IMG/VR virus record: IMGVR_UViG_2595698353_000001
Span: 78,564 to 142,563 of that record
DNA from: a virus
Taxonomy: Duplodnaviria > Heunggongvirae > Uroviricota > Caudoviricetes
Length of the DNA stretch: 64,000 nt
Strand: one strand, 5' to 3'
This document shows, piece by piece, positions 5,182 through 52,288 of this stretch; the first letter of the stretch is position 1; each line of letters opens with the position of its first letter. The notes beneath the pieces are model-generated. The model did no database searches. It had not been told where the DNA came from and worked only from the letters and a program-made list of their open reading frames with translations. The position numbers and the translations under genes are program-made.

Positions 5182-5215
5182 AAATGCCGATCGGTTCGCC
5201 GGTCGGCATTTTTTC
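5182..5215 (+). terminator. rho-independent terminator after the tail fibre gene
   Basis: Stem AATGCCGATCGG, loop ttcg, stem CCGGTCGGCATT (one mismatch), followed by TTTTTT. Confidence 0.65.
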
Positions 5216-5233: not shown

Positions 5234-5263
5234 TTGCGTAAACCCATATGTGTCCACTACACT
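5234..5263 (+). promoter_or_regulatory. sigma-A-like promoter P1 (TTGCGT-N18-TACACT)
   Basis: Same -35/18-bp spacer/-10 architecture recurs at 7 or more other loci. Lies about 40 nt upstream of the 5302 ATG and precedes the conserved leader. Confidence 0.45.
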
Positions 5264-5301
5264 GGACAACGTAACGCCGACAGCCCCTCCAGGAGGACCG
5301 C

Positions 5302-5700: not shown

Positions 5701-5728
5701 CCCCACCCCAACACTCAAGGAGATCCCC

Positions 5729-6122: not shown

Positions 6123-6149
6123 CCCACCCCAACACTCAAGGAGGACCCA

Positions 6150-6790: not shown

Positions 6791-6825
6791 CAAACACCCA
6801 CGACGACTGAGCAAGTCATCCGAGA

Positions 6826-6867
6826 AAGCCGGGCTCCCCATCCGCCTTGGGAGCCCGGCTTTTTTTC
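6826..6867 (+). terminator. rho-independent terminator
   Basis: Stem AGCCGGGCTCCC, loop, stem GGGAGCCCGGCT, followed by TTTTTTT. Confidence 0.7.
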
Positions 6868-6885: not shown

Positions 6886-6915
6886 TTGCGCGAACCTATA
6901 GGCGTCAAGTACACT
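6886..6915 (+). promoter_or_regulatory. promoter P2 (TTGCGC-N18-TACACT)
   Basis: Exact repeat of the P1/P5 architecture, followed by leader GCAAGCAACCAACCCCTCCAGGAGGA. Confidence 0.5.
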
Positions 6916-6952
6916 AGACGAAGCAAGCAACCAACCCCTCCAGGAGGATCTC

Positions 6953-9165: not shown

Positions 9166-9195
9166 TTGCATGGAACTATAGCTATGCTGTAGCAT
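9166..9195 (+). promoter_or_regulatory. promoter P3 (TTGCAT-N18-TAGCAT) with dyad CTATAGCTATGCTGTAG in the spacer
   Basis: Family architecture plus conserved leader TCAGCAAGCAACCAGCCCCTCCAGGAGGA downstream. Confidence 0.5.
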
Positions 9196-9233
9196 TCATG
9201 TCAGCAAGCAACCAGCCCCTCCAGGAGGACATC

Positions 9234-9995: not shown

Positions 9996-10030
9996 AAAGC
10001 CCCCGGGGAGTACGACCCCCGGGGGCTTTC
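9996..10030. terminator. bidirectional hairpin terminator between converging + and - genes
   Basis: Stem AAAGCCCCCGGGG, loop agtacga, stem CCCCGGGGGCTTT. A-run and T-run flank it on both sides. Confidence 0.6.
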
Positions 10031-10156
10031 TGCTGTGCTAAGGTCTCCGCATATTCCGTCCTCGCTGACGGTTCGTGCTCGCCTCTTGCGTAGACGTGAG
10101 ATGGAAGTGGCCCCGGGAATACCTGCCGGACGACAGGCCCCCGGGGCCGCGCCATG

Positions 10157-14859: not shown

Positions 14860-14889
14860 TTGTGCAGTTTGGTGGGGGTTTGCTATAGT
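14860..14889 (+). promoter_or_regulatory. sigma-A-like promoter (TTGTGC-N18-TATAGT)
   Basis: Canonical hexamers upstream of 14932. Confidence 0.5.
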
Positions 14890-22481: not shown

Positions 22482-22654
22482 TGGCGCGCAAGAAGAAGGC
22501 CGAGCCGGTGTCGCTCACCGAGCTCGTCGAGAGCCAGATGGCGGCCGTCGCCGCCGACCACGAGCAGATGGCAGCCGAGAGCCAGGCTCAGGTCGACGAG
22601 TACGTCGCACGATCGGAGGCAGGCGGTGTCCCGGCGGCCAAAAGGCCTTTTTGA
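22469..22654 (+). CDS. small hypothetical protein (61 aa)
   Basis: Overlaps the primase end. Alternative start at ATG 22481. Weak. Confidence 0.35.
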   Translation: MEAVMARKKKAEPVSLTELVESQMAAVAADHEQMAAESQAQVDEYVARSEAGGVPAAKRPF

Positions 22655-22687
22655 CGGGAAAGCGGCCATACCGATAGGTTCCCTTCC

Positions 22688-35969: not shown

Positions 35970-36208
35970 GCGGCCCCAACTACGCGCGCCGGATCCCCAA
36001 CCGTGAGGCCAAGGCGGCACAGTGCGCCAAGGAGTACCGCGAGGGCGCATCGATCCGCGAGCTGATGGAGCGCCACGGCGTCTCGTACGGAGGGATGCGC
36101 GCGCTGGTCGTCTCCGGCGGCGCGGCCATGCGCCCCCGGGGCGGCGATGTCCGTGCCGGTGCCGAGTCCCGCCGCGACACCTCGGACCGGATGGAGGGAG
36201 GCCGGTGA
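35966..36208 (+). CDS. small HTH protein (80 aa)
   Basis: ASIRELMERHGVSYGGMRALV is an HTH. ATG overlaps the upstream stop. Confidence 0.5.
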   Translation: MSGPNYARRIPNREAKAAQCAKEYREGASIRELMERHGVSYGGMRALVVSGGAAMRPRGGDVRAGAESRRDTSDRMEGGR

Positions 36209-36969
36209 GCCCGAAGTACATCGCCCTCCGCGTCTCGTCGTTCGAGGACCTCGACGCCCTGCCGGTGACCCGGATGCTGGCGAACGTCACCGCGAAGCTG
36301 GACAGCTCGGTGTTCGACGCGCGCGACTTCGATTCCCGCTTCGACCCGGTCTCTCCGGCCGGGTTCGCCAAGTACCTCGAGCACTTCAGTGTGCCGGTGC
36401 TCCTCCTGGGCCACCTGCAGGGCGCGGCGCTGGTGCGCAACTACATCGGCACCACCGAGGGCTACCAGGCCTTCCGTGACGGCAAGCTGCTCGGTGCCGC
36501 GCTGATCTCGGACCCGTACCGTCCGCAGGGGCACCACCTCGGCAGCGGCGACCTGTCCGGGATGGGGATGTTCGGCGAGGGCCTGCGCTGGCCGCTGGCG
36601 ATGCCGGTGTACCACCTGGCCCACGAGGGTGACATCGTCACCAACGCCGAGCCCGGCTCGCCGCTGTACGACGTCAAGGGCCTCATGGACATGTTCCTGA
36701 CCGAGCCCTCGAGGACGCCCGGCAGCGCGCACACCTACTGCTGGGCCGAGGAGGCCTCGGTCGACCTGACCCGGCGTCGCTGGGCCTCTGAGGGGCTCGG
36801 CACGCCGACCGGCAAGCGTCTCGCGAAGCAGTACGCGAAGACGATCACCGACCTGCAGAACCACCACTACGGCGGCCTGTCGACGACGGCGTACCTCACG
36901 CCGATGCCGGACTCGGGCGAGACGTACATCGGCTACCTGGCCCGAATCATCGAGGAGACCTGGGCATGA
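36205..36969 (+). CDS. hypothetical protein (254 aa)
   Basis: GTG overlaps the upstream stop. In frame with track ORF 36022-36969. Confidence 0.55.
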   Translation: MSPKYIALRVSSFEDLDALPVTRMLANVTAKLDSSVFDARDFDSRFDPVSPAGFAKYLEHFSVPVLLLGHLQGAALVRNYIGTTEGYQAFRDGKLLGAALISDPYRPQGHHLGSGDLSGMGMFGEGLRWPLAMPVYHLAHEGDIVTNAEPGSPLYDVKGLMDMFLTEPSRTPGSAHTYCWAEEASVDLTRRRWASEGLGTPTGKRLAKQYAKTITDLQNHHYGGLSTTAYLTPMPDSGETYIGYLARIIEETWA

Positions 36970-37355
36970 CGGATATCCCCGTGGCCTTCACCCACCCGGG
37001 CGACGCTGCGATGGCATCGATTTCGGCCTCCGCCACCGCCGCGCTCAAGGACTCGTTCGTCCCGCTGACGGACGAGGCCCGGCTGCTCGTCGACGCCGCC
37101 CGCACGATCAACGGTGAGCGGCAGGACATGTACGGCGATGCGGAGGACTCCTTCGCCGTCATCGCCCGCTACTGGGCAAACCACCTCAATGCCGTCAACC
37201 GCACCGACGACATCGAGATCCGGCCGCGCGACGTCGCGGCCATGATGGTGCTCTTCAAGCTCGCCCGCGAGGTCAACGCACCTAAAAGGGACAATCGCCT
37301 GGATGGCGCGGGCTATTTCGGACTCATGGAACGCTGCATCCTCGCCGAGGACTGA
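36966..37355 (+). CDS. conserved phage hypothetical protein (129 aa)
   Basis: ATG overlaps the upstream stop. Motif TINGERQDMYGDAEDSFAVIARYWANHL. Confidence 0.55.
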   Translation: MTDIPVAFTHPGDAAMASISASATAALKDSFVPLTDEARLLVDAARTINGERQDMYGDAEDSFAVIARYWANHLNAVNRTDDIEIRPRDVAAMMVLFKLAREVNAPKRDNRLDGAGYFGLMERCILAED

Positions 37356-37366
37356 AAGGACTCGCC

Positions 37367-37942
37367 ATGCCCGCAACACGCAATTCCGATCCCAACACTT
37401 CGCACGAGGCCGAGAAGTCGGTCCGCATCGGCCCCAGCCGCAAGGACGTCTACCGGACCTTCTTCAAGTACGGCCCGATGACCGACGCCGAGCTCCTCCA
37501 GGCGTACCGGCTGCCCTCCGAGGTGCTCGTCCCGCAGTCCGACTCGGGCCTGCGCAGCCGTCGCGCCGAGCTCGTCGCCCAGGGGATGCTCGAGGCCCGG
37601 GGCATCACGGCGAACGCCACCGGCCGCAAGGTCACCATCTGGGCCATCCCGGGTCGCACCCGGGGCACCCGGAGCCTGGAGAAGGCGATCAAGGAGGCCA
37701 GCACGCACTCTGACGCCCTGCTCGGCAGGCTGCTGGCCTCCGAGCGCGCCCTGAGCGCGGCCAACTCCTCGCTCCTCCGCCAGGAGCACACGATCCTGGA
37801 CATGGGCCGTCGGCTGGACGCCGTCCAGGCCACCTCGAGCCAGTGGCTCAAGGCCCGCCGTCGGGGCAAGTTCATCCAGATCGCGTCGGTCGAGAAGACC
37901 ATCAAGAAGATCGACGACTCGGCGCGCCCGTCGTGTGGCTGA
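37367..37942 (+). CDS. winged-helix DNA-binding protein with coiled-coil C-terminus
   Basis: RKDVYRTFFKYGPMTDAELLQAY...RKVTIWAI resembles MarR/GntR-like wH. Confidence 0.55.
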   Translation: MPATRNSDPNTSHEAEKSVRIGPSRKDVYRTFFKYGPMTDAELLQAYRLPSEVLVPQSDSGLRSRRAELVAQGMLEARGITANATGRKVTIWAIPGRTRGTRSLEKAIKEASTHSDALLGRLLASERALSAANSSLLRQEHTILDMGRRLDAVQATSSQWLKARRRGKFIQIASVEKTIKKIDDSARPSCG

Positions 37943-37943
37943 T

Positions 37944-37973
37944 TTGCCCCGGCCCATAGGTGTGCTGTAGTCT
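37944..37973 (+). promoter_or_regulatory. promoter P4 (TTGCCC-N18-TAGTCT) with dyad GCTGTAGTCTATCTACAGC overlapping -10
   Basis: Family architecture, followed by leader CAGCAAGCAAGATCAACCCCTCCAGGAGGA. Confidence 0.5.
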
Positions 37974-38012
37974 ATCTACAGCAAGCAAGATCAACCCCTC
38001 CAGGAGGACACC

Positions 38013-38336
38013 ATGGCCGCGCAGACACTGATCACCGATCTCGAGAACGCCCTCGTCATCGCCTTCCAGGGCCTGGTCGTCGGCAACTCCGACCCCCGCA
38101 ACGATCGCGACGCCACCCGGCACGAGATCCGCGCCCGCGCCGAGGAGCTGGCCGAGCAGCTGACCAACGCCTCCGGCTGGGAGTGGTTCCGGTCCGACGA
38201 GGCCGAGGAGACCGACACCCCGGCTGAGCAGGCCGTCCGCGAGTTCATCGAGGCCGAGTGGAGCCTGGAGTTCCAGGAGCATCAGATCGACGCCTTCGTG
38301 CAGGCCGTCGTCGCGCGCGGCTGGACCGTCGCGTGA
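38013..38336 (+). CDS. hypothetical acidic protein (107 aa)
   Basis: Promoter plus conserved leader upstream. Confidence 0.55.
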   Translation: MAAQTLITDLENALVIAFQGLVVGNSDPRNDRDATRHEIRARAEELAEQLTNASGWEWFRSDEAEETDTPAEQAVREFIEAEWSLEFQEHQIDAFVQAVVARGWTVA

Positions 38337-38431
38337 CCGGGCGCGAGTGGCTCGGCCTGTTCGTTGCCCCGCTCCTCGTGGTCGGCGGCTTCGCGGCAGC
38401 AATCCTTCTCGCCTGGTGGCTGGGTCTGTGA
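38333..38431 (+). CDS. small membrane protein (32 aa, VTGREWLGLFVAPLLVVGGFAAAILLAWWLGL)
   Basis: GTGA overlap with the upstream stop. Single TM helix. Not in track (under 60 aa). Confidence 0.3.
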   Translation: MTGREWLGLFVAPLLVVGGFAAAILLAWWLGL

Positions 38432-38469
38432 CCCGGCCGCCGGTCGGCCCCTACCCGAAAGATCCCAAC

Positions 38470-38820
38470 ATGACGCTCCCCGACCTATCCGTGCCGAAGC
38501 TGGTTGTCCTGCAGCAGACCAAGAGCAAGCACACGGTCAGCTTCGCCGTCCACGGCGCGCCGATGTTCACGCAGAACGAGCGCCGCTTCCGGGGCATGAA
38601 GGTCCTCCCGCAGACCCTGCTGGTGGAGGCCCGCAGCGACCTCGAGTCCGGCTGGCGTCTGCATCACGTGACCATGATCGGCGTGACACCCGACGGTGAG
38701 CCTGCCGCCCTCACGCTGCGCACCGGCAAGGGCGAGATGCGCGTGCTGCCGAACTGGGCTATCTCGAGCGTGAACGAGGTGCTCGAGCTCCTGCGCGCCA
38801 ACGACGGGCGCGAGGACTGA
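38470..38820 (+). CDS. hypothetical protein (116 aa)
   Basis: Internal ATG of track ORF 38347-38820. Upstream part is Arg/Pro junk. Confidence 0.5.
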   Translation: MTLPDLSVPKLVVLQQTKSKHTVSFAVHGAPMFTQNERRFRGMKVLPQTLLVEARSDLESGWRLHHVTMIGVTPDGEPAALTLRTGKGEMRVLPNWAISSVNEVLELLRANDGRED

Positions 38821-38823
38821 GCC

Positions 38824-38964
38824 ATGCGTCAGACCACCGTCTTCCTCATCGCTGCCGCGATCATCGCCTTCGGTCTCGTCGCCGGGATTGTCGCCGGAGC
38901 CATGACGGCCCCGGATAAGTCCGAGGCCCCCGTGATCTATCCCGAGTGCACCATCGCTGTCTGA
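38824..38964 (+). CDS. small membrane protein (46 aa, MRQTTVFLIAAAIIAFGLVAGIVAGAM...)
   Basis: ATG 3 nt after the upstream stop. Hydrophobic helix. Not in track. Confidence 0.35.
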   Translation: MRQTTVFLIAAAIIAFGLVAGIVAGAMTAPDKSEAPVIYPECTIAV

Positions 38965-38988
38965 TCCACTCAACCCGAAAGAGAGTTC

Positions 38989-39816
38989 ATGAACCGCAAG
39001 GTGTTTCCCGCCGCCCTCATCGCCACGGCCGTCGTCTTCGGCGGCACCGCGTGCACGATGACCAGCACCGCCCCGAACGAGGTCGGCGTGGTCTACGCGG
39101 ACGGCTTCATGCACGACAAGTCGTTCAAGTCGTGCGTCAACCCGAGCACGAACGATGTCAGCTCGTGGTACTCGAAGTCGTACAAGTACTACTCCGACCA
39201 GCGCACCTACGTCTTCACGGGCGACGGCACCGGCGACGGCGTCGACGTTCCGGCCCTGAGCTTCGTGACCAAGGACAACCAGCAGATGTTCGTGCCGGGG
39301 CAGATGACGTTCCGCCTGAACACCGACTGCGACGTCCTGCGCAAGTTCCACGAGGACATCGCGCTGAAGAGCGGCTGGTCCGAGACGCTGCGGATCTACC
39401 TGTTCCAGCCCCTGCAGGACGCGCTCACCGAGGTGAGCAAGAACTACGACTGGGGCCAGCTGTACTCGGACTCTGCCGTGCGCACCGAGTGGGCGCAGGC
39501 CGTCCGCGACAAGCTGCCGGAGAAGGTCAAGCAGGCCGGTGCGGCGGAGTACTTCACCGAGTTCTCGCTGATGCTGCAGCAGCCGAACGTCACCGAGAAC
39601 CTGCGCAAGGCGATCGAGCAGGTCCAGGTCGCCCGGCAGGAGAACTCCGCCCAGACGGAGCGCAACGCGCAGGTCACCAACGAGCTGAAGTCGATCACGG
39701 ACCTCGTCGCGGTCCTCGGCCCGGAGGGCTACAACACCTACCAGGCCATCAAGGACGGCAAGATCCAGATCATGCCGGTCCCGCAGGGCACCAGCATCGT
39801 CGTCCAGCCGAAGTAG
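38989..39816 (+). CDS. lipoprotein (signal peptide plus lipobox GGTAC)
   Basis: MNRKVFPAALIATAVVFGGTAC is a type II signal peptide. Confidence 0.65.
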   Translation: MNRKVFPAALIATAVVFGGTACTMTSTAPNEVGVVYADGFMHDKSFKSCVNPSTNDVSSWYSKSYKYYSDQRTYVFTGDGTGDGVDVPALSFVTKDNQQMFVPGQMTFRLNTDCDVLRKFHEDIALKSGWSETLRIYLFQPLQDALTEVSKNYDWGQLYSDSAVRTEWAQAVRDKLPEKVKQAGAAEYFTEFSLMLQQPNVTENLRKAIEQVQVARQENSAQTERNAQVTNELKSITDLVAVLGPEGYNTYQAIKDGKIQIMPVPQGTSIVVQPK

Positions 39817-39825
39817 GAGGCAGTC

Positions 39826-40020
39826 GTGAGTCAGCCCGAGCAGGTCGTCCGCGTGGCCGCGAGCAAGCTCCGCGTGGGCATGACGATCGCCGACCTCCCG
39901 ATCGCCCGTGGCGGCGTGATCGACGGCGTCGTGGCCAACGGCAAGACCACCAGCGTGTGGATGGGTGACCGCCTGCGGACCTTCAAGAACACCGTGATGG
40001 TGGCGGTCCTGCCGGACTGA
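39826..40020 (+). CDS. hypothetical protein (64 aa)
   Basis: RBS GGAGG then GTG. Confidence 0.45.
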   Translation: MSQPEQVVRVAASKLRVGMTIADLPIARGGVIDGVVANGKTTSVWMGDRLRTFKNTVMVAVLPD

Positions 40021-40021
40021 T

Positions 40022-40051
40022 TTGCGCTACCCTACATGTGTCTAGTACACT
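40022..40051 (+). promoter_or_regulatory. promoter P5 (TTGCGC-N18-TACACT)
   Basis: Identical hexamers to P2. Leader GCAGCCACTCAACCCCTCCAGGAGGA follows. Confidence 0.5.
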
Positions 40052-40088
40052 GGACGTAGCAGCCACTCAACCCCTCCAGGAGGACCCC

Positions 40089-40361
40089 ATGAACGCCACC
40101 GCCATCACCATCGCCGCCTACCTGCACGAGGTCATCAACACCGAGGCCGACGGCAGCATCGACGAGCTGATCGCCGACGCCGCGCAGGGTGTCGCCTCCC
40201 GATTCTCGAACGGCAAGGCCGGAGCGGCCGAGGCCAAGAAGGTCGCCGACCAGTTCATCCTCGAGCTGGTGCTGGCCTTCACCAACGCCACCACCGAGTG
40301 GACCGTGGCCGACATCGTCGAGGACATCGCCGCCGAGCTCGACGCGCAGGGCTGGCACTGA
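40089..40361 (+). CDS. hypothetical acidic protein (90 aa)
   Basis: Start at ATG after the conserved leader. Track start at 40038 lies in the leader. Confidence 0.55.
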   Translation: MNATAITIAAYLHEVINTEADGSIDELIADAAQGVASRFSNGKAGAAEAKKVADQFILELVLAFTNATTEWTVADIVEDIAAELDAQGWH

Positions 40362-40393
40362 CCCGCATTGATCCCCAACCGAAGGAGAGAGCA

Positions 40394-40627
40394 ATGAGCG
40401 AGAACCCGATCCTGGTTGAGCCCGACTCCCGGGGACGCGTGTCCCTAAGTCAAGTCGGCCGCAAGTCCCGGTACTACCGCGTCACCGAGGAGGCGGGCGG
40501 CATCATCGTCCTCCGCCCCGCCGTCATCCTCACCGTCGACGAGGCGCTCGAGCAGGGCGTGGATCCCGACGTCGTCGAGGAGCTGCTCGGCGGCCGCACG
40601 GTGGAGTCGCCGAGCGCCGATGAGTGA
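40394..40627 (+). CDS. hypothetical protein (77 aa)
   Basis: RBS GAAGGAGAGAG then ATG. In frame with track ORF 40298-40627. Confidence 0.5.
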   Translation: MSENPILVEPDSRGRVSLSQVGRKSRYYRVTEEAGGIIVLRPAVILTVDEALEQGVDPDVVEELLGGRTVESPSADE

Positions 40628-41114
40628 CCAGGAGGTCCTCTTCCTCGACCCCGGCACCGGCGCGCGTGTGCACGCGTCCATCAACCGGGACGGGACGGTC
40701 GCCGTCCACGAGGGCGGCTTCGTTCAGACCCTGACCCAGTTCATGTCCAACGCAAAGGAGCACACGTACGTGATCACCCCCGAATCCACTCTCGCCGAGC
40801 TCGAGGCCGCCCGCGAGGTCGAGGCGCAGAAGCGCGAGAAGGCGCGCACGAAGGCCGTGCGCCACAGCGACCGGATCAAGGTGCTGGACGACCTGATCAA
40901 GAAGGCCAAGCTGCCGAAGGAGCCCGCCAATGGCGGCACCGTGAGGATCGTCCGGCTGCGCCGGAACCTGGTATTCGCGAGTCGACTCGCCAGCGGGAAT
41001 TGGGCCTTGCACGAGCTCGGTCGCCGCCTCTCGTGGGACGAGCTGATGGGCTGGGCCTCGTCCTACGGGTCGTTCACCGTGGAGCGCGTCGTCGCCTTCG
41101 AGGCCATCGCTTGA
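40620..41114 (+). CDS. hypothetical protein (164 aa)
   Basis: ATG overlaps the upstream gene end. Confidence 0.55.
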   Translation: MSDQEVLFLDPGTGARVHASINRDGTVAVHEGGFVQTLTQFMSNAKEHTYVITPESTLAELEAAREVEAQKREKARTKAVRHSDRIKVLDDLIKKAKLPKEPANGGTVRIVRLRRNLVFASRLASGNWALHELGRRLSWDELMGWASSYGSFTVERVVAFEAIA

Positions 41115-41353
41115 TCCCCATCTGGTGGAGCTGGGCTCTCACCACCATCGGTCTCGCCGGGCTGGCGCTCGTGTACGCCCGCCCGGCGAGCCTGATCGGC
41201 CCGCTCATCGGCATCGCTGTGCAGGGGCTGTGGATCGCCTACGCCGTCGCCACCCTGCAGTTCGGATTCATCGTCTCGGCCCTCGGTTACGGGGCCGTCA
41301 ATATCTACGGGCTGCGCATGCGGCGGCTCGCGAAGGAGAGTCAGAGTGCCTGA
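41111..41353 (+). CDS. small integral membrane protein (about 80 aa, 2-3 TM)
   Basis: LIPIWWSWALTTIGLAGLALVY...IAVQGLWIAYAVATLQFGFIVSALGYGAV. TTG overlaps the upstream stop. Start is uncertain. Confidence 0.4.
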   Translation: MIPIWWSWALTTIGLAGLALVYARPASLIGPLIGIAVQGLWIAYAVATLQFGFIVSALGYGAVNIYGLRMRRLAKESQSA

Positions 41354-41894
41354 GTACCCCCGGACCGACCTGCTGTCGGCCACGGACACCTTCCTGGAGG
41401 CAGCGGACCACCCGTTCCCCGAGGTGCCGTCCGCGCCGTCGGTGGAGCTGTTCGCGTCCCGCCTGGCGATGATCACCGAGGAGTTCCGCGAGCTGTTCGC
41501 ATCGGTCGGGCTCACCCCGCTCGACGTCGCCTTCGCGGCGTCCATTACGGACCACGACCAGCTCACCGAGCAGCTGGCACTCCAGCTCGAGGGTCAGCAG
41601 ATCGACCTCGCCGAGGCGGTCGACGCCTTCGACGACATCATCGTCGTGGCGCACGGCGGTGCGCGGGAGATCGCGGGTCCGGCCACCAACGAGGCCGCCT
41701 GGGAGGTGGCGCGGGCCAACCTGGACAAGATCGTGGACGGCAAGGTCGTGCGCACGCCGAAGGGCAAGATCACCAAGCCGGAGGGGCACCGGGCTGCCGA
41801 CGTCGAGAGCGTGCTGCGCCGGTACGGCATGGATCAGCGCCACGACGTGCTCGTGCGCACCGACATGCCCGTCGCCGAGGAGGCCTCGAAGTGA
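41346..41894 (+). CDS. hypothetical protein, possibly MazG-like all-alpha NTP pyrophosphohydrolase
   Basis: ITEEFRELFASVG...AVDAFDDIIVVAHG resembles the EExxE/D acidic helices. Low confidence. Confidence 0.45.
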   Translation: MPEYPRTDLLSATDTFLEAADHPFPEVPSAPSVELFASRLAMITEEFRELFASVGLTPLDVAFAASITDHDQLTEQLALQLEGQQIDLAEAVDAFDDIIVVAHGGAREIAGPATNEAAWEVARANLDKIVDGKVVRTPKGKITKPEGHRAADVESVLRRYGMDQRHDVLVRTDMPVAEEASK

Positions 41895-42208
41895 AGATCA
41901 CGCTGCCCACGGGCGTTGTCATCGAGAGCGACCGGGTCATCCATATCGACGGGGTCGAGATCCGCGAGTCTGCTCCGGCCGCTCCGGCCGCTCCGGAGGT
42001 CAGGAGGCCCGCGATCGAGCTGTCCATGCAGGGAGCGCAGACGCTCCAGTACGTCCGCGACAGCGAGGGTCCGGTCTCGACCACCGATGTCCGCCGCTCC
42101 CTGGCCATCGGTAGCGAGACGGCGCGCTGCCGACTCAAGAAGCTCGTCCTGCAGGGCCTGATCATTCAGGTCTCCCCGGGCCGGTACGTCGCCGCGAAGA
42201 CCCGCTAG
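41891..42208 (+). CDS. MKITLP-family winged-helix protein, paralog 1
   Basis: N-terminus MKITLPTGVVIESD is shared with 42521. C-terminal RLKKLVLQGLIIQVSPGRYV is a wH. Confidence 0.55.
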   Translation: MKITLPTGVVIESDRVIHIDGVEIRESAPAAPAAPEVRRPAIELSMQGAQTLQYVRDSEGPVSTTDVRRSLAIGSETARCRLKKLVLQGLIIQVSPGRYVAAKTR

Positions 42209-42218
42209 AGCAAGGCGT

Positions 42219-42248
42219 TTGCACTAACCTACAGGTGTCCTGTAGGCT
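42219..42248 (+). promoter_or_regulatory. promoter P6 (TTGCAC-N18-TAGGCT) with perfect dyad CCTACAGGTGTCCTGTAGG
   Basis: Family architecture, followed by leader GCAGCAAGAAACCAACACTCCAGGAGG. Confidence 0.5.
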
Positions 42249-42284
42249 AGACGCAGCAAGAAACCAACACTCCAGGAGGCCCCC

Positions 42285-42497
42285 ATGGCAAAGCGCACCG
42301 CCACCCCCGAGATCGAGGTCAACCGACGCGATCTCGTGCGCACCGAGGGCGTGACCCTCGACGGTGATCCCGCGAAGATCAGCGGAGCCCGTCTCGACTT
42401 CCCGGTCATCGTCTCCCGTTCCGGGAAGGCCGTGGAGTACTCGTGGCTCACCGTCGCACGCAAGGTCGCCGACGGCCGCCTCGACTTCCAGTCCTGA
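42285..42497 (+). CDS. hypothetical protein (70 aa)
   Basis: Promoter plus leader upstream. Confidence 0.55.
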   Translation: MAKRTATPEIEVNRRDLVRTEGVTLDGDPAKISGARLDFPVIVSRSGKAVEYSWLTVARKVADGRLDFQS

Positions 42498-42520
42498 AAC
42501 CCAAGAGAGGTTCCACCAGC

Positions 42521-42886
42521 ATGAAGATCACCCTTCCCAGCGGCGTCGTCATCGAGTCGGACGAGGGAGTCAATGTCGGCGGCGTCGAGATCGCCCCGAT
42601 CAAGCTGAAGCAGATTCCGAAGCCGCCGGAGGCGCAGGACTCCGACGTCACAGCGGTGCAGGCCCAGGCTCTTCGGTCGGAGGAGGCCCGGCTGGGCAAG
42701 GTCTTGCGCGAGACGCTCGCGATGCTCCGCGAGTACGACAGCCCCGTCTCCGTCTCGCATGTTGCGCAGCTGATGGACATCAACTGTGCGACGTCCAGCC
42801 GTCGCCTGATCGCGCTCACCGACACCGGCCTGGTGGAGCGCATCCGTCGCGGGATCTACCGGACCGTGAAGTTCGCGGAGGTGTAG
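42521..42886 (+). CDS. MKITLP-family winged-helix protein, paralog 2
   Basis: MKITLPSGVVIESDEG. C-terminal SSRRLIALTDTGLVERIRRGIYR is a wH. Start at internal ATG of track ORF 42443-42886, after AAGAGAGG. Confidence 0.55.
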   Translation: MKITLPSGVVIESDEGVNVGGVEIAPIKLKQIPKPPEAQDSDVTAVQAQALRSEEARLGKVLRETLAMLREYDSPVSVSHVAQLMDINCATSSRRLIALTDTGLVERIRRGIYRTVKFAEV

Positions 42887-43711
42887 GTGCTCATCGCCAT
42901 CGTCTTGATCCTGATCGCCGTCTCTGGCACGGCGATCGGGGTCCAGACGCAGAGGCTCATCGTGCGGAACCGGGCCGCGCAGCTGGAGGCGGCCGAGAAC
43001 GACTACCGGCGCGCTCTGCTGGCCGACCTCAAGCCCGAGGACGTCCAGTGGCTGCACAACACCGGGGCCGTCTGGGTCAGCTCCGAGCGGGCCGACCTGG
43101 ACCCGGTGAAGGTGCTCGAGGCCGCCGCCGAGGAGGAGCGGGCCAAGCAGGAGGCCGAACAGAAGCGTCAGCTCGAGCTCGCGATGGCCGAGCTGAATGC
43201 CAAGCGAACGGCCGCCCGTCAGGCCGAGGCGTCGCGGCTCAAGATGGAGGCCGCCAAGGCAAGGCAGGAGCGAGATGAGTGGGAGCGAAAGCAGGCGGCC
43301 GCCAACGCACTGGCGCAGCTCCGGAAGAGCAGCGAAAAGAGCCGCCATTCGGATCAGCACTACATGTACATCAATCGCTGGGGGGACAGCGAAGGCTGCA
43401 GCTGCGACCACTGCTACGAAGACTGGGCCGATGATGACGGGGAGCGGTCCTGGTCCGCGCTCGACCCCAAGACGGAGAAGGGGTTCAGCGACCTCCGAGC
43501 CGAGATCCGGGGGTCTCAGCACCCGGTCGTCATCGCCATCGACAGAGCGACCGGCGAGGCCTCGGTCAAGCGCCCCCTGGACGTCCGAAAGGGCCAGGAG
43601 TACGTCATCAAGACCGACAACAAGCCGCACCTCAAGTACCACCCGATCCCGGACAGCTGGAAGCAGGCCCTCGAACCGCCGAGGCCCATCGACTACGACC
43701 CCTACGACTAG
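42887..43711 (+). CDS. membrane-anchored coiled-coil protein (274 aa)
   Basis: N-terminal TM MLIAIVLILIAVSGTAIG. Long charged EAEQKRQLELAMAEL helix. CSCDHC motif. Confidence 0.55.
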   Translation: MLIAIVLILIAVSGTAIGVQTQRLIVRNRAAQLEAAENDYRRALLADLKPEDVQWLHNTGAVWVSSERADLDPVKVLEAAAEEERAKQEAEQKRQLELAMAELNAKRTAARQAEASRLKMEAAKARQERDEWERKQAAANALAQLRKSSEKSRHSDQHYMYINRWGDSEGCSCDHCYEDWADDDGERSWSALDPKTEKGFSDLRAEIRGSQHPVVIAIDRATGEASVKRPLDVRKGQEYVIKTDNKPHLKYHPIPDSWKQALEPPRPIDYDPYD

Positions 43712-43720
43712 GAGCACCCC

Positions 43721-43933
43721 ATGCCCGCCAACCATCTCATCGTCCCGACGTCCAAACACTTCTTCCGGGGGCAGGAGGCCGCCCGGAACGACTACCGCAA
43801 GGCCTCCGACGTCGACCCGAATGACGACCTGCTCGGCCGGATGCACCCCAGCTTCGCCGCCGGTTACCGCCAGGAGCTCCGTGAGCTGAAGGCCATCGCC
43901 GCGTCCCAGTCCATCCCCGCCTACGCCAGCTAG
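43721..43933 (+). CDS. hypothetical protein (70 aa)
   Basis: RBS GGAG upstream. Confidence 0.45.
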   Translation: MPANHLIVPTSKHFFRGQEAARNDYRKASDVDPNDDLLGRMHPSFAAGYRQELRELKAIAASQSIPAYAS

Positions 43934-43940
43934 GAGCCCC

Positions 43941-44348
43941 GTGCCCACACCACCGCCCCTGATCATCGCTGTCCCCGACGAGTCGGCCATGCCGGTCGTC
44001 CCCGAGGACGAGCGCGACATGCGCTACCAGCGGTACCGGAAGTACGAGACCACCTGGGGCGAGGTCGACATGCTGCACCGGGCGCGCCACCACCTGCACG
44101 AGGCTCGGCGTCGCGTCTCGGGCAGCCACTCCAGAATCGGCGACTTCCTCATGTACGGAGAGATGGTGCCCGACGCCGCACGCCAGACGCTGGCGAGCGA
44201 GGCGCGCAGCCTAGCCGATGCGGCAGCCAGCTACCAGATCGTGTCGATCCTGCGCGCAGTGTTCGCCGAGTCGAACCCGGAGCTCGCTCGCCGCTGGGAT
44301 CAGCTGATGGATCCCGGCGCGTCACTGCCCAAAAAGCCGCAGAGCTGA
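43941..44348 (+). CDS. hypothetical protein (135 aa)
   Basis: RBS GGAGCCCC then GTG. Confidence 0.5.
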   Translation: MPTPPPLIIAVPDESAMPVVPEDERDMRYQRYRKYETTWGEVDMLHRARHHLHEARRRVSGSHSRIGDFLMYGEMVPDAARQTLASEARSLADAAASYQIVSILRAVFAESNPELARRWDQLMDPGASLPKKPQS

Positions 44349-44391
44349 TATAGTACTCATACAGCCCAGCAACAGCCTCAAGGAGGAGCGC

Positions 44392-44847
44392 ATGACCGCA
44401 ATCGCGAAGGTCCCGTTCAAGTCTCCCTGGTCGAGCGGGGAGTGGACCAGGCACGTCGACCACGACGGCCACGTCCACATCCACCACGACGGACGACTGC
44501 TCACGCTCTACACCAAGTCCTGGAGCGACGACGCCCGTGTCGACGAGGAGGGCAACGAGCGCGAGCCCGACGAGGAGGTCACCGAGGTCTACTACGACCC
44601 GACCCCGGTCTTCGTCGTCGAGGAGCTCCGCCGCCGGGGCGTCGGGTTCGGCTCCTATGCCACCGAGGTCGGCGACATCGCCGAGACCCTCAACGGAACC
44701 GACGAGTTCTATGTCGCCGGATACGGGCGTCCGGTGGCGCGCGAGGAGCAGGTCAGCGCCTTCCTCCACGGTTTCACCCCGAAGCAGCTCGAGATCATCA
44801 ACGCCCACGTCGACGCCCGCCCGGGCACCCTGAAGGAGACCGCATGA
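44392..44847 (+). CDS. hypothetical protein (151 aa)
   Basis: Leader CAGCCTCAAGGAGGAGCGC then ATG. Confidence 0.55.
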   Translation: MTAIAKVPFKSPWSSGEWTRHVDHDGHVHIHHDGRLLTLYTKSWSDDARVDEEGNEREPDEEVTEVYYDPTPVFVVEELRRRGVGFGSYATEVGDIAETLNGTDEFYVAGYGRPVAREEQVSAFLHGFTPKQLEIINAHVDARPGTLKETA

Positions 44848-45587
44848 CCATCGAGGGCCTCAAGCTTGCCGGTTTCGACATCGAGTCGACCGGACCCAAC
44901 CCGCTGAAGGACCGCATCGTCACGGCCAACCTCACGTATGCGGAGGTCGTCGACGGCGAGCTGAAGGTGACCGGCTCGCAGAGCTGGCTGCTCGACCCGG
45001 AGATCGAGATCCCGGCAGAGGCCGCCGCGATCCACGGGATCAGCACCGAGCAGGCGCAGGCCGATGGCGGCGACTACGAAGAGGGCGTGTTCGAGATCGC
45101 CGACTCCATCGCGAGCGCGAACAAGGACGGCCGCACCGTCGTCATCTTCAACGCCAACTTCGACCTGACCATGCTCGCGTCCGAGTACCGGCGCGTGAGC
45201 GGCAACGATGCCCCGCTGCCGCCGGATCTCATCGTCGATCCGTACGTGATCGACAAGGGCGTCGACAAGTTCCGCAAGGGCAGCCGCAAGCTCGTCGACG
45301 TGGCCCGGCACTACGGCATCGAGCTCGTCGGCGCGCACACCGCCGAGGGTGACGTCGCGGCCACGATCCAGCTGGCCGTCAAGGTCCTGCAGATCCCCAA
45401 GGTCGCAGCCAAGTTCCCCGACGAGATCATGGCGACGCAGGTCCTCTCGTACCGCCTGCAGCAGGAGGGCCTGGCCGAGTACTGGCGCAAGAAGGCCTCG
45501 CGCATGCAGAACACCGACCCTGAGGAGGCCGCCGAGCTCCGCGAGCGCGCCGACGGCGTCCGTACGGACTGGCCGGTCGCTATGTAG
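44844..45587 (+). CDS. DnaQ-like DEDDh 3'-5' exonuclease (Pol III epsilon-like)
   Basis: Exo I GFDIESTG. Exo II VIFNANFDLTML. Exo III HTAEGDVAAT. ATG overlaps the upstream stop. Confidence 0.8.
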   Translation: MTIEGLKLAGFDIESTGPNPLKDRIVTANLTYAEVVDGELKVTGSQSWLLDPEIEIPAEAAAIHGISTEQAQADGGDYEEGVFEIADSIASANKDGRTVVIFNANFDLTMLASEYRRVSGNDAPLPPDLIVDPYVIDKGVDKFRKGSRKLVDVARHYGIELVGAHTAEGDVAATIQLAVKVLQIPKVAAKFPDEIMATQVLSYRLQQEGLAEYWRKKASRMQNTDPEEAAELRERADGVRTDWPVAM

Positions 45588-45737
45588 AGACCACCCCCTG
45601 GCGGCGTTGCCGCGCGCCGGGGGTGTTGAGCGAGGGCGAGGATTCTGGGTAGGGGTAGCCGGAGTCCTCGCCCCACCGCTATCCGCAGGACGACAACAGC
45701 TCGAGGAGCGTGCATCTGGAATACCGAGGAGATCACC

Positions 45738-45989
45738 GTGACCGAGAACCAATCGAAGCGCATCCCGGCGAAGACGTCGTGGAATCTGTTCCACGCGCTG
45801 TCCAAGGGCCACCTGGACGCCGCCGCACAGGACTACTACCTGGACCGAGGCATAGAGCGCCCCCGGGACGCCGACGGCTACCCAGTGCTGCCCACGAAGG
45901 CACCGCAGCGGGCCATCGACTACGCCCGTGATCGCGGCTTCCCCCTGCCCGGAGAGAACGAGCCCGCAGTCAGGTTCCCAAACGCTTGA
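45738..45989 (+). CDS. hypothetical protein (83 aa)
   Basis: RBS GGAG then GTG. Confidence 0.45.
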   Translation: MTENQSKRIPAKTSWNLFHALSKGHLDAAAQDYYLDRGIERPRDADGYPVLPTKAPQRAIDYARDRGFPLPGENEPAVRFPNA

Positions 45990-46016
45990 CCAGCGCACCT
46001 ACAGGTGTGCTACATT
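45986..46016 (+). promoter_or_regulatory. putative promoter (TTGACC-N19-TACATT) with ACAGGTGTGCT element
   Basis: Family-like. Followed by about 120-nt GC-rich leader. Confidence 0.4.
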
Positions 46017-46074
46017 AAACCCACACCAAGACCAACTGACTGCCGGAGCGTAGTGGGGAACTGCGCTACCGGCC

Positions 46075-46103
46075 GGGGCGGCGGGCTCGCGACCCGCCGC
46101 CCC
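46075..46103 (+). promoter_or_regulatory. perfect 11-bp GC hairpin inside a long 5' UTR
   Basis: GGGGCGGCGGG, loop ctcgcga, CCCGCCGCCCC. No U tract. Confidence 0.45.
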
Positions 46104-46139
46104 ACCCCGCGTCACCAACAGAGAAGGGATCGACCAGCA

Positions 46140-46301
46140 ATGAGCTCTACCCCGATCTATGACGAACTGAAGGCCGAAGTCCGAGCCCGCCAGCAGCTCG
46201 GGCAGGTGGGCTTCGAGGCGAAGACCCCGGAGCCGGAGCCGGAGCCCGTGCCGACTGGACCGACGTGGCAGGACGGCATCTGGCGACGGCGCAACCGATG
46301 A
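46140..46301 (+). CDS. small hypothetical protein (53 aa)
   Basis: ATG after AGAAGGGA. In frame with track ORF 46005-46301, whose N-terminus covers the hairpin. Confidence 0.4.
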   Translation: MSSTPIYDELKAEVRARQQLGQVGFEAKTPEPEPEPVPTGPTWQDGIWRRRNR

Positions 46302-46729
46302 TCATCACCACCCTGCTCACCCTGGCCTTCCAGGCGGGCATCCTGACTTTGATCGTCAAGACCGGGCGGGCGCAGCGCCGGAACCGCGAGGCCGACCAGA
46401 AGGCCATGGCGGCCGCCATCGCCACGCTGACCGAGCAATTCGACGAGAAGCTGCTGCAGGTCTACATGACCGACGAGGAGCGGGCCAAGTACGGCCTGCC
46501 GACGATCGGCGGCGCGCTGCCCGCCCTGGCGGAGTCTGCCACGCGCCGGGCGATCAAGCCCGCATGTAAAGGACCGCATGCTTGGAGCGCCCGGTACCGG
46601 GATGAGCCGAGGTTCCCAGCAAACAGGCAGCTCGCCGACAGCGACGGCAAAGCGCACGTCAGGATCTGCATCGAGTGCGAGATCCACCAGGTCTGGGATA
46701 AGGCCGCGAACGACTGGGCATCCGACTGA
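46298..46729 (+). CDS. membrane protein (143 aa, N-terminal TM)
   Basis: MIITTLLTLAFQAGILTLIV. ATG overlaps the upstream stop. Confidence 0.5.
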   Translation: MIITTLLTLAFQAGILTLIVKTGRAQRRNREADQKAMAAAIATLTEQFDEKLLQVYMTDEERAKYGLPTIGGALPALAESATRRAIKPACKGPHAWSARYRDEPRFPANRQLADSDGKAHVRICIECEIHQVWDKAANDWASD

Positions 46730-47399: not shown

Positions 47400-47450
47400 C
47401 AGGTCTACAGGTAAGCTATATTCAGTGTGTAAGCGATCCAGAGGAGAGAG

Positions 47451-48905: not shown

Positions 48906-48935
48906 TTGCCAAGAGCTACAGCACTGCTGTAGTCT
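48906..48935 (+). promoter_or_regulatory. promoter P7 (TTGCCA-N18-TAGTCT) with perfect dyad CTACAGCACTGCTGTAG
   Basis: Family architecture. Leader CACCACACCAACACTCAAGGAGG. Confidence 0.5.
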
Positions 48936-48968
48936 AGCTACACCACACCAACACTCAAGGAGGCCATC

Positions 48969-51933: not shown

Positions 51934-51963
51934 TTGCGCTCACCCACATGTGTCGAGTAAGCT
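51934..51963 (+). promoter_or_regulatory. promoter P8 (TTGCGC-N18-TAAGCT)
   Basis: Family architecture. Leader CGAAGCAAGCCACCAACACTCAAGGAG (the GCAAGC part matches the P2 leader). Confidence 0.5.
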
Positions 51964-51998
51964 AGACGAAGCAAGCCACCAACACTCAAGGAGACGCC

Positions 51999-52223: not shown

Positions 52224-52288
52224 CCCGCCTCACAGACTGCGGCCCCCCCCGACTGGGGCGGGCCGCACCCAACCACTCAAGGAGTCCC

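Follow-up and report, generated by a model that had tools for sequence, protein, structure and literature searches.

The kind of cassette described here is already known from other large lytic phages. The early promoters of T4, T5 and SPO1 are present in many strong host-type copies, with conservation that is not confined to the hexamers, and small host-takeover genes are expressed from them. They are near-consensus for the host and experimentally mapped, whereas the sites of Rhodococcus phage E3 treated below match the promoter skeleton and are known from sequence. For the PeSLs (promoter-early stem-loops) of the T4-type phages phi1 and RB49, promoter and terminator activity, recombination and mini-circles have been demonstrated (PMC2839356; PMC4122927); the E3 cassette is described from its sequence. 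Gordonia phage Vardy carries 5 intergenic copies of a 50-bp motif with a -10 element and a leaderless start (PMC9671010). The genome of E3 holds a promoter family of 15 copies, in which, as in the PeSLs, a host-type promoter, a Shine-Dalgarno (SD) sequence and a start codon are repeated between genes, mostly 5' of ORFans.

The stretch of DNA analyzed (the window, 64,000 nucleotides) is the last 64 kb of the E3 genome (142.5 kb). The GenBank and RefSeq records of E3 contain no regulatory features. A sequence-only reading of the window had proposed eight near-identical promoters, and all eight are present at the coordinates and with the hexamers it gave. Within the window, the pattern TTGCNN-N18-TANN[CA]T matches the + strand 8 times and the - strand 0 times, and 200 dinucleotide-preserving shuffles gave a mean of 0.115 and a maximum of 2. 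The proposed motif was slightly too narrow: TTGCRY is found in 6 of the 8 sites (exceptions at 37944, TTGCCC, and 48906, TTGCCA) and TANNCT in 7 of 8 (exception at 9166, TAGCAT). The strict form TTGCRY-N18-TANNCT has 5 sites in the window versus 0.005 expected. The sharing of -10 hexamers had been read correctly, with TACACT at 5234, 6886 and 40022 and TAGTCT at 37944 and 48906.

When the whole genome was scanned with a 34-nt matrix the family proved larger than eight. Fifteen sites scored 29-52 bits and the runner-up position 5.2 bits, a gap of 24 bits, and nothing comparable was found on the - strand. All 15 sites are intergenic and on the + strand, with intergenic DNA making up 5.3% of the genome, and the spacer, claimed to be exactly 18 bp, has this length in 15 of 15. 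A generic search of the genome + strand (TTGNNN-N16-19-TANNNT) returned just 22 matches, 15 of which are the family. The shuffles, the one-sided strand distribution and the 24 bits that separate members from all other positions rule out a chance or composition artefact. Two looser variants had also been proposed. The one at 45986..46016 (+ strand; TTGACC-N19-TACATT) is a marginal, degenerate relative, because the spacer block ACCTACAGGTGTG alone matches and indels lie on both sides of it (partial nhmmer match, E = 0.28). The other, at 14467, is not a member; it was undetected by nhmmer and is without the invariant TTG.

The eight cassettes of the window are all on the + strand. Cassette 1 (5234..5301) has the -35 element TTGCGT at 5234-5239 and the -10 element TACACT at 5258-5263, followed by an SD leader and the ATG of gp126 at 5302; it scores 46 bits (nhmmer E = 1.4e-7). 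An intrinsic terminator (5183..5214, + strand), consisting of a GC-rich hairpin of -19 kcal/mol and the run TTTTTT, ends about 20 nt 5' of it. Cassette 2 (6886..6952; TTGCGC/TACACT) leads to the gp129 ATG at 6953 and likewise follows, at about 20 nt, a terminator (6825..6866, + strand; hairpin of -28 kcal/mol, then TTTTTTT) that ends the gp126-gp128 unit. Cassette 3 (9166..9233; TTGCAT/TAGCAT; gp132 ATG at 9234) is among the weaker members (30.6 bits, E = 2e-4) and has the class I dyad CTATAGC/GCTGTAG; its unit, gp132-gp133, ends with an intrinsic terminator at 9999..10031 (+ strand). Cassette 4 (37944..38012; TTGCCC/TAGTCT; gp170 ATG at 38013) and cassette 5, the focal site (40022..40088; TTGCGC/TACACT; gp174 ATG at 40089), occupy entire gaps, their first bases lying 1 nt past the stop codons of gp169 and gp173, respectively; the gap filled by cassette 5 is 68 nt long. 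The top score of 52 bits belongs to cassette 6 (42219..42284; TTGCAC/TAGGCT; gp180 ATG at 42285), which has a perfect 8-bp inverted repeat, CCTACAGG-TGT-CCTGTAGG, between -35 and -10. Cassette 7 (48906..48968; TTGCCA/TAGTCT; gp192 ATG at 48969) has the lowest score, 29 bits, and a class I dyad, and cassette 8 (51934..51998; TTGCGC/TAAGCT) leads to the gp200 ATG at 51999. A leader lies between promoter and ATG in each of cassettes 2 to 8 as well. In the window the -10 ends 33-39 nt short of the ATG, compared with the 35-45 nt that had been proposed.

In Corynebacterineae the sigma-A consensus is ttgnca for the -35 and TAnnnT for the -10 (PMC5483222), and in M. smegmatis TANNNT is found 6-13 nt 5' of mapped starts (PMC6448022). 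The family has the TAnnnT -10 and a TTG -35 within the 16-19 bp spacing of this class (PMC5483222, PMC6448022). Positions 4-6 of the -35 are CGC-like and not ACA-like, so the TTG half alone fits ttgnca. Compared with the E. coli consensus TTGACA/TATAAT the family hexamers match at about 7 of 12 positions, and a sigma-70 consensus scan (at least 9/12, with at least 4/6 per hexamer) of window positions 36000-54000 and 4000-16000 called zero family sites; just the looser actinobacterial skeleton TTGnnn/TAnnnT fits. Because of this hexamer match and the empty scan, recognition by the unmodified host polymerase is plausible but not certain. Invariant in 15 of 15 sites are T1, T2 and G3 of the -35 and T25, A26 and T30 of the -10, and C11, A13, A15 and T20 of the spacer are as invariant as the hexamers. 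The spacer carries the conserved block CCTAYAGGTGTC, and rGAC follows the -10. By hand sum, the spacer holds about 22 bits, the two hexamers about 19, spacer plus discriminator about 26, and the whole about 45. The sequence-only reading had called the conservation tighter than in host promoters, which was right and understated, the spacer holding about as much information as both hexamers together. Its further proposal of a phage-specific promoter class is supported by the sigma-A-type hexamers, the fixed 18-bp spacing, the co-direction with genes and the intergenic placement at the heads of gene blocks.

Because spacer and discriminator hold about 26 of about 45 bits, far above what sigma-A needs, a factor-dependent (middle-type or repressible) class is possible. 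A phage DNA-binding protein would then read the spacer block, a dyad on the -10, or both, and would either activate promoters that are weak without it, in the way of MotA/AsiA at the middle promoters of T4, or silence the whole set in the manner of an operator. We regard this as a minority possibility, and as a refinement of the reading preferred below rather than as exclusive of it. About 14 bits would be needed to specify 15 genome sites, compared with the 45 present; the spacer holds more of these than the two hexamers, and the hexamers agree with the consensus at about 7 of 12 positions. About 9 sites have a dyad GTCnWG-TAnn-CTnGAC with the -10 at its center, and about 6 have CTACAG/CTGTAG in the interval from -35 to -10; these two dyads are, however, mutually exclusive, imperfect and without significant covariation. 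Small helix-turn-helix (HTH) proteins are encoded inside the units (gp50, of Cro/CI type; gp179 and gp181, winged HTH), but no candidate factor could be linked to the motif. For gp160 a role as a phage sigma factor reading these sites is not supported, since its region 4 match of 24.4 bits stays below the cutoff of 25.7, region 2 is missing and the HTH is in mid-protein. Nor is gp102 supported as the regulator, as it has no Pfam DNA-binding domain and is present as a gene in phage Finch, where the family is absent.

Thirteen of the 15 cassettes continue into an A/C-rich leader, a strong Shine-Dalgarno sequence and an ATG. The leader is T-poor (5.5% T), its module sequence is (A)CCCCAACACTCAAGGAG or CAACCCCTCCAGGAGGA, and the gap from GGAG to ATG is 5-6 nt. 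At a threshold of at least 19 bits the module occurs 21 times in the genome, always on the + strand; 12 copies are joined to a promoter and 9 stand alone. Copies without a promoter in the window are found at 5705..5728 (ACCCCAACACTCAAGGAGA; 5' of gp127; 24.7 bits), 6126..6149 (5' of gp128; 25.4 bits) and 52267..52288 (5' of gp201; 21.0 bits), each on the + strand. The predicted fold energy from -30 to +20 is -5.1 kcal/mol at leader-module starts versus -10.6 kcal/mol at other genes (p = 3e-7), and ATG is used at 21 of 22 leader-module starts versus 65% elsewhere.

Two of the 15 family sites have a leaderless layout, with the annotated ATG 6 and 7 nt past the -10 at gp29 and gp46. No earlier start is possible in the ORF of gp29, and an SD sequence would not fit in front of its ATG. 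The same geometry is seen at a predicted sigma-A-like promoter outside the family (22651..22687, + strand; TTGACG-N18-TAGGTT), where the ATG of the HNH endonuclease gene gp151 lies 7 nt past the -10, is again the first possible start and has no SD room. About 24% of mycobacterial mRNAs are leaderless (PMC6448022). At the E3 sites host RNA polymerase would start about 7 nt past the -10.

In a further reading the element would act as RNA in read-through transcripts, as a processing site, a protective 5' hairpin or a translational operator, and not in initiation. Strong hairpin and T-run terminators lie 15-25 nt 5' of 5 of the 15 sites, which leaves 10 without an upstream terminator and probably transcribed through, and short stems are possible (mean z = -1.8 relative to shuffles), both of which this reading accommodates. 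Against it, the stems are of two mutually exclusive kinds in different subsets, three sites are stemless and no significant compensatory change was found, so that a single conserved RNA or DNA hairpin was rejected. The positions that never vary are those of -35 and -10 hexamers a fixed distance apart, and in the two copies with a leaderless layout the mRNA would begin only past the element. A search of the genome for a complementary sequence, such as an antisense or sRNA partner of the leader, found none within 4 mismatches. An RNA role in place of initiation is considered very improbable. The 10 sites without a terminator may add to read-through rather than delimit separate units.

The reading of the sites as heads of blocks of small genes was borne out; all are intergenic and co-directional, and five directly follow intrinsic terminators. 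Terminators close the units gp80-82, gp96-97, gp102-103, gp126-128 and gp132-133; those at 5183 and 6825 were omitted by the terminator scan and are supported by RNAfold. Virion and lysis genes have no family site in front of them, and several are preceded by another motif, GCATCAAT. Another non-family, sigma-A-like promoter candidate (14860..14889, + strand; TTGTGC-N18-TATAGT) precedes gp141, where the replication module begins. Many dispersed and partly dyad-symmetric copies, together with a ParB domain in gp206, could also suggest DNA sites unrelated to transcription, such as iterons or an origin, ParB partition, packaging or recombination sites. This has next to no likelihood in our view, given that all copies are oriented with the genes, have a start codon 33-40 nt (or 6-7 nt) away and are never clustered or intragenic; such fixed start-codon geometry points to gene expression, not replication or partition.

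The 15 downstream proteins are ORFans and mutually unrelated, which rules out gene duplication as the origin of the repeats, and nucleotide identity falls from 66% within the motif to 30% just upstream. The sites could still be mobile regulatory cassettes that resemble one another mainly through intragenomic copying or recombination, with shuffled ORFans behind them and a spacer without function. Several gaps are filled exactly, from 1-2 nt past a stop codon to the next ATG, promoter and leader modules are found apart, and 14 of the 15 first genes have no homolog in Gordonia phage Stormageddon. All four TACACT sites of the genome carry CCCCTCCAGGAGGA, which links the -10 subtype to the leader subtype. 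The 35-nt leader of cassette 8 (51934; record position 130497) is identical to that of a copy at record position 54757, the two promoters differing at 5 positions, and in the cassettes of gp80 and gp132 identity runs 18 nt into otherwise unrelated genes. The architecture also fits the published PeSLs (PMC2839356). Copying as the main cause of the similarity nevertheless appears rather unlikely. Mismatches are very uneven across columns (p about 3e-9), the 5' edge of conservation is exactly the first T of the -35, and a phage whose DnaE is only 48% identical retains the same spacer block, which together indicate selection on the sequence itself.

The evidence is best explained, with high probability, by sigma-A-type promoters in modular cassettes that head insulated units of small genes. 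Each cassette of 65-75 nt would comprise, in order, the -35 TTGC(G)C, the 18-bp spacer with its block, the -10 TANNCT and rGAC just before the start, to which 13 of the 15 add an unstructured A/C-rich 5' leader ending in SD and ATG. Each would head a short unit of small accessory genes peculiar to E3, and the terminators closing several units would insulate them from neighboring virion, lysis and replication genes. The promoters are presumed to depend on sigma-A. Gene content and the host-type hexamers suggest that they most likely form an early (host-takeover) transcription class; the earlier designation as early or middle is inferred from gene content and the lack of sites upstream of virion and lysis genes. 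Other intergenic sites of E3 with a better -35 (TTGACA, TTGACC, TTGACG) could be the true immediate-early promoters. A second reader, either a regulator or extra polymerase contacts, probably controls the whole set together, since selection acts position by position on the information outside the hexamers, which a sister family in a distant phage has in common with E3.

E3 is a singleton whose nearest relatives are about 48% identical in DnaE or below (Stormageddon, 48%), so no close genome is available for footprinting. A BLAST search with the 72-nt cassette returned E3 only, the strict pattern had no match in viral, metagenome and genome contigs, and in IMG/VR a looser gapped pattern gave only contigs with a single match, as chance predicts. 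The E3 profile had no matches in the genomes of Finch and Stormageddon (best E = 0.43, on sister-family sites). Solely by a generic architecture search, a sister family was detected in Stormageddon, with 12-13 sites TTGCAC-N17-TATATT, the spacer block CTACACGTGTG and a leader with CCACCAAC. No paper describing this family in Stormageddon or RedWattleHog was located. Like the E3 family, that of Stormageddon and RedWattleHog has the -35 TTGC(A/G)C, the block CTACA(C/G)GTGT, small genes downstream and 11-13 copies on the + strand only, with the CCACCAAC leader followed by SD and ATG. Unlike that of E3, it has a 17-bp spacer, the -10 TATATT, a block displaced by 2-3 nt so that it abuts the -10, and a longer leader with a small covarying hairpin. 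The likeness of the E3 and Stormageddon spacer matrices exceeds all 3000 column shuffles, and one first gene, gp102, is conserved, with a family promoter 5' of it in both phages. A block shared by two families across host genera favors a factor that reads it, and the offset of 2-3 nt relative to the hexamers is awkward for a factor that would have to touch polymerase in one fixed geometry.

Promoters of the ECF sigma-D type have the -35 GTAAC(A/G) and the -10 GAT (PMC6338062). The pattern GTAACG-N15-17-CGAY is found 21 times in Finch and 12 times in Stormageddon, all on the + strand, and 0 times in E3 on either strand. Finch has predicted sigma-D-type promoters, GTAACG-N16-CGAT, and no family of the E3 type. 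As a tentative reading, the large actinobacterial myoviruses of this lineage may drive their blocks of accessory genes from swappable, multi-copy promoter-leader cassettes whose sigma class is exchanged from phage to phage, and in the sigma-A type the spacer block would be read by a conserved regulator. E3 would then have only the sigma-A type, Finch only the sigma-D (envelope-stress ECF) type and Stormageddon both, with a conserved gene (gp102 / gp21 / gp27) standing behind a different class in different phages; a regulator of CTACA(G/C)GTGT would give single-switch control of all units. The comparison of Stormageddon and Finch suggests that, among related phages, similar blocks of accessory genes have been rewired from one host sigma factor to another; if true, this would show how phage gene-expression programs evolve, and an envelope-stress sigma factor would be exploitable by phages. 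For a singleton phage the analysis offers a concrete putative transcription map, with 15 promoter-headed ORFan units, terminators and a separable translation-initiation module, and the cassette is a candidate for a compact promoter and leader part for expression in Rhodococcus and other related mycolata, for which few such parts exist.

Among the described systems, the lambdoid 'morons' resemble the promoter-gene-terminator units of E3 in being inserted between late genes. The multiple SigA-like promoters of Cluster O phages (PMC4351075) and of Vardy, of Cluster DJ (PMC9671010), are comparable with those of E3, and some of them are leaderless, with +1 at the first base of the start codon. Unlike the E3 sites, those of Cluster O were identified by scoring against a consensus, and their description does not make them a single near-identical family (PMC4351075). 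The 5 copies in Vardy come without a separate leader module, whereas the 15 in E3 have a spacer block that is conserved and a leader that can be separated.

The E3 leader is close in placement to the start-associated sequences (SAS) of Cluster K mycobacteriophages (PMC3203893), being an asymmetric, conserved, AGGAG-containing sequence in a single orientation, 3-7 bp before the start of non-structural genes of different families. In both systems conservation extends beyond 16S pairing, the ATG bias is strong and about half of the copies are joined to a second upstream element. The sequences themselves are unrelated (GGGATAGGAGCCC in SAS, CCAACACTCAAGGAG in E3); the leader module of E3 is not the 13-bp SAS, and the two are analogous, not homologous. 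The upstream element of Cluster K, the ESAS, consists of two 17-bp inverted repeats without an obvious -35 or -10, whereas the upstream element of E3 has promoter architecture and fixed spacing.

The PeSLs of phi1 and RB49 (PMC2839356; PMC4122927) share with the E3 cassette the intergenic order of stop codon, host-type promoter, SD and start codon, and stem-loop potential between -35 and -10 or over the -10. In both, most copies lie 5' of ORFans, a small number sit inside virion modules and there is an association with upstream termination. E3 differs in host phylum and consensus and adds a long conserved leader. Its promoter stems, found at 12 of the 15 sites in two alternative positions and with no T-run after them, are 5-8 bp long, imperfect and missing in some copies, unlike those of the PeSLs, and termination would fall to separate canonical terminators, present at 5 of the 15 sites, and not, as in the PeSLs, to the cassette itself.

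The 9-kb stretch around the focal site (window 40022-40051) is 100% identical to Rhodococcus phage E3 (HM114277 / NC_021347), a lytic singleton myovirus of R. equi with a genome of 142,563 bp; the window corresponds to positions 78,564-142,563 of the E3 record. The nearest relatives are Rhodococcus phage Finch, with about 21% of gene content in common (PMC13313380), and Gordonia phage Stormageddon, and the DnaE polymerases of both are less than 48% identical to that of E3. Public E3 records contain CDS and two misc_feature lines only, with no promoters or other regulatory features.

The sequence-only reading had described at least eight near-identical promoters, TTGCRY-N18-TANNCT, as a phage-specific early/middle class. 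All eight sites were found as described, and only the pattern was drawn slightly too narrowly, since TTGCRY fits six and TANNCT seven of the eight. The wider pattern TTGCNN-N18-TANN[CA]T has eight matches on the + strand of the window and none on the - strand, versus 0.115 expected (200 dinucleotide-preserving shuffles). Across the whole E3 genome an iterated matrix converged on 15 sites, every one on the + strand; a gapped profile search recovered the same 15 (E <= 2e-4). These score 29-52 bits with a 34-nt matrix, the next best genome position scoring 5.2 bits. Intergenic gaps make up 5.3% of the genome and hold all 15 sites, and the generic pattern TTGNNN-N16-19-TANNNT has just 22 matches on the + strand of the genome, 15 of which are the family. 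The shuffle counts, the matrix gap and the intergenic placement decisively rebut the objection that shuffled or coding sequence would hold the motif just as often.

The skeleton TTGnnn-N18-TAnnnT agrees with the sigma-A consensus of the host's relatives: that of Corynebacterium is -35 ttgnca and -10 TAnnnT (PMC5483222), and 79% of the starts mapped in M. smegmatis have TANNNT 6-13 nt upstream, the strongest promoters being those with this motif (PMC6448022). Two members lack a leader, the annotated ATG following the -10 after 6 nt (gp29) and 7 nt (gp46); the gp29 ORF has no possible start codon before this ATG, and a Shine-Dalgarno (SD) sequence would not fit between it and the promoter. At window 22651-22690 a non-family sigma-A-like promoter, TTGACG-N18-TAGGTT, is followed, 7 nt after the -10, by the ATG of the HNH endonuclease gene gp151. 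Because of this geometry, and because leaderless mRNAs form about a quarter of mycobacterial transcripts (PMC6448022), transcription from the family likely starts about 7 nt after the -10. The gp151 gene itself appears to be a self-contained leaderless unit within the replication operon, as expected of a mobile homing-endonuclease gene. Five family sites (gp46, gp80, gp96, gp126 and gp129) lie 15-25 nt downstream of strong hairpin-plus-T-run terminators, and a genome-wide terminator scan placed terminators also at the close of the units gp80-82, gp96-97, gp102-103, gp126-128 and gp132-133. Bounded in this way, several small-gene blocks are predicted to be insulated promoter-genes-terminator units, some set among virion and lysis genes. 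The first genes behind the 15 promoters are not related to one another, so the shared thing is the regulatory element and not the gene. Skeleton, leaderless geometry, terminators and unrelated first genes agree in supporting the proposed promoter family, with caveats: agreement of the hexamers with TTGACA/TATAAT is limited to about 7 of 12 positions, a consensus scan of window 4000-16000 and 36000-54000 calls no family site, and better -35 hexamers occur at other intergenic sites of E3.

None of the virion and lysis genes is preceded by any of the 15 family sites. The motif GCATCAAT (context sCGCATCAATwGG) has five exact copies versus about 0.7 expected per strand, all intergenic and on the + strand (E3 record 26422, 44537, 47396, 48456 and 56031), 25-37 nt upstream of late-type gene starts. 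The genes concerned are gp67 and those of lipase gp84, tail fibre gp86, structural protein gp87 and endolysin gp98, and three of the five copies are enclosed in a large GC-rich hairpin. The motif is a candidate for a late promoter or a control element of late genes. Separate, non-family promoter candidates are present in the replication module. The absence of the family before virion and lysis genes, and the presence of another motif there, supports a non-late class, and the label 'early' would follow from the host-type hexamers and ORFan content. Internal coding repeats were observed in virion protein gp204 (window 54286-57771; several diverged units of about 69 nt and larger repeats of 106-116 nt), and the SSB gene gp153 contains a Q/P-rich tandem repeat tract (window 24901-25198).

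Conservation sets in sharply with the first T of the -35 (2.8 bits, columns upstream holding 0.1-0.7 bits save about 1.1 bits at position -1, which is C or T only) and runs on through the spacer. Positions T1 T2 G3, C11, A13, A15, T25 A26 and T30 are invariant, and C4, C10, G19, T20, G24, G32 and A33 nearly so. Column values summed by hand give about 19 bits for the two hexamers, 22 bits for the spacer and 5 bits for rGAC after the -10; the total is about 45 bits versus about 14 bits needed to pick out 15 sites from 285 kb counted over both strands, and the surplus in the spacer suggests a second reader. Mismatches are very unevenly spread over columns (binomial homogeneity p ~3e-9) and identity, 66% within the motif, is down to 30% over the 34 nt that precede it; the pattern is therefore moulded by position-specific constraint and not only by recent copying.

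Two imperfect dyads are present. About six sites have CTACAG/CTGTAG between the two hexamers, with a perfect copy at window 42219, and about nine have GTCnWG-TAnn-CTnGAC centred on the -10. The two dyads are mutually exclusive, neither shows significant covariation across the family sites, and the mean folding z-score is modest (-1.8). A single hairpin conserved throughout is therefore improbable, and the dyads may be operator-like protein sites or stems like the promoter-early stem-loops (PeSLs) of T4-type phages. No protein could be tied to the dyads or spacer from the candidates checked, gp160 and gp102: the sigma region-4 match of gp160 is sub-threshold (24.4 bits, cutoff 25.7) with no region 2, and gp102 has no recognisable DNA-binding domain. 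Annotated 'sigma-70 region 4', gp160 (window 32198-32620) has 140 aa and is shorter than its positional counterpart Finch gp84 (223 aa, region-4 match above cutoff). The product of gp162 (window 32969-33712) is orthologous to Stormageddon gp83, which carries an HTH-protein annotation; a Pfam search of gp162 gave no HTH match. A consensus scanner reported a sigma-70-like match on the - strand, CTGACA-N18-TATAGT (10/12), at window 9175-9204, antisense across the promoter and leader before gp132; it is probably a by-product of the site's dyad symmetry, because no - strand gene follows.

Thirteen family sites run into a leader of 33-40 nt, (r)GACGAAGCAAGCCACCAAC(A/C)C(C)TC(A/C)AGGAG(G)A-N4-5-ATG, with a composition rich in A (34%) and C (39%), 22% G and little T (5.5%). 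This leader/SD module is separable, with 21 copies of at least 19 bits, + strand only, 12 joined to the promoter and nine alone, the latter preceding other small genes (e.g. window 5705, 6126 and 52267). Predicted structure over -30..+20 is -5.1 kcal/mol with the module versus -10.6 for other genes (p = 3e-7), and ATG is the start in 21 of 22 leader-module genes versus 65% of other genes. With this low structure and ATG bias, the module looks like a high-efficiency translation-initiation region.

The E3 cassette of promoter, leader and ATG has BLAST matches in E3 only, the strict family pattern is absent from the viral, metagenome and genome contigs searched, and a looser gapped pattern gives single matches at chance level in IMG/VR; the cassette sequence is private to E3. 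A generic architecture search found a sigma-A-type sister family in Stormageddon (12-13 sites, + strand, 44-68 bits), (G)GAC-TTGCAC-N17-TATATT. The spacer block of this family is CTACACGTGTG, and its conserved leader carries CCACCAAC ahead of the SD and ATG. The family sites lie on the + strand of three pieces of the Stormageddon record, at L008:25677, L009:7843 and 46526, and L010:6582, 6982, 13408, 18651, 21959, 23878, 24362, 25111 and 25474, and the family is common to the cluster-mate RedWattleHog (11 places). The similarity of the E3 and Stormageddon spacer matrices is 4.84, versus a mean of 1.90 and maximum of 4.46 in 3000 column-shuffled controls, the shared block being shifted by 2 nt. 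Fourteen of the 15 E3 first genes have no Stormageddon homolog; the exception, gp102, is 38% identical to Stormageddon gp21, with a family promoter directly upstream in both phages. The Stormageddon leader (about 45 nt) holds a small hairpin, GG(A/C/G)C-N3-G(T/G/C)CC, with apparent covariation at its third pair (GGAC/GTCC, GGCC/GGCC, GGGC/GCCC).

Finch has no E3-type family. A second promoter-like motif, GTAACG-N16-CGA(T/C), with a leader, SD and start after it, occurs only on the + strand, in 21 copies in Finch (L005:22454 and 22816; L006 and L007, Finch record 80563-126773) and 12 in Stormageddon (L009 and L010, Stormageddon record 61501-122988), and is absent from E3. It agrees with the promoter consensus of Corynebacterium sigma-D, an ECF factor of envelope stress (-35 GTAAC(A/G), -10 GAT; PMC6338062), which suggests that the small-gene arrays of both phages are driven by an ECF sigma of the host or by a phage mimic of one. 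The Finch ortholog of gp102, gp27, stands behind such a site, and its annotated start (L005:22823) overlaps the GTAACG-N16-CGAT. That start is probably 21 codons too early, because initiation at an in-frame ATG further on (L005:22886), preceded by GGAGG, would bring the N-terminus into alignment with those of E3 gp102 and Stormageddon gp21. Across E3, Finch and Stormageddon, multi-copy promoter-leader cassettes before accessory genes thus appear to be a lineage feature whose promoter class varies by phage. Promoter-class exchange between phages and the shared spacer block deserve follow-up.

The closest architectural match to the E3 cassette is the PeSL, in which a stop codon is followed by a host-type early promoter, an SD and a start codon, and a stem-loop either covers the -10 or occupies the stretch between the two hexamers; most PeSLs precede ORFans, and a few are set within virion modules (PMC2839356). 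The leader module resembles the start-associated sequence (SAS) of Cluster K mycobacteriophages in its ATG bias and in that about half of the copies are linked to a second upstream element (PMC3203893), although the sequences are not related. Other multi-copy elements are the predicted SigA-like promoters with leaderless starts of Cluster O phages (PMC4351075), a 50-bp promoter motif with five copies in Gordonia phage Vardy (PMC9671010), and the promoter-carrying intergenic repeats of halovirus HF2, verified by reporter assays (PMC8707807). The E3 family is a previously unannotated example of this already known kind of phage regulatory element.
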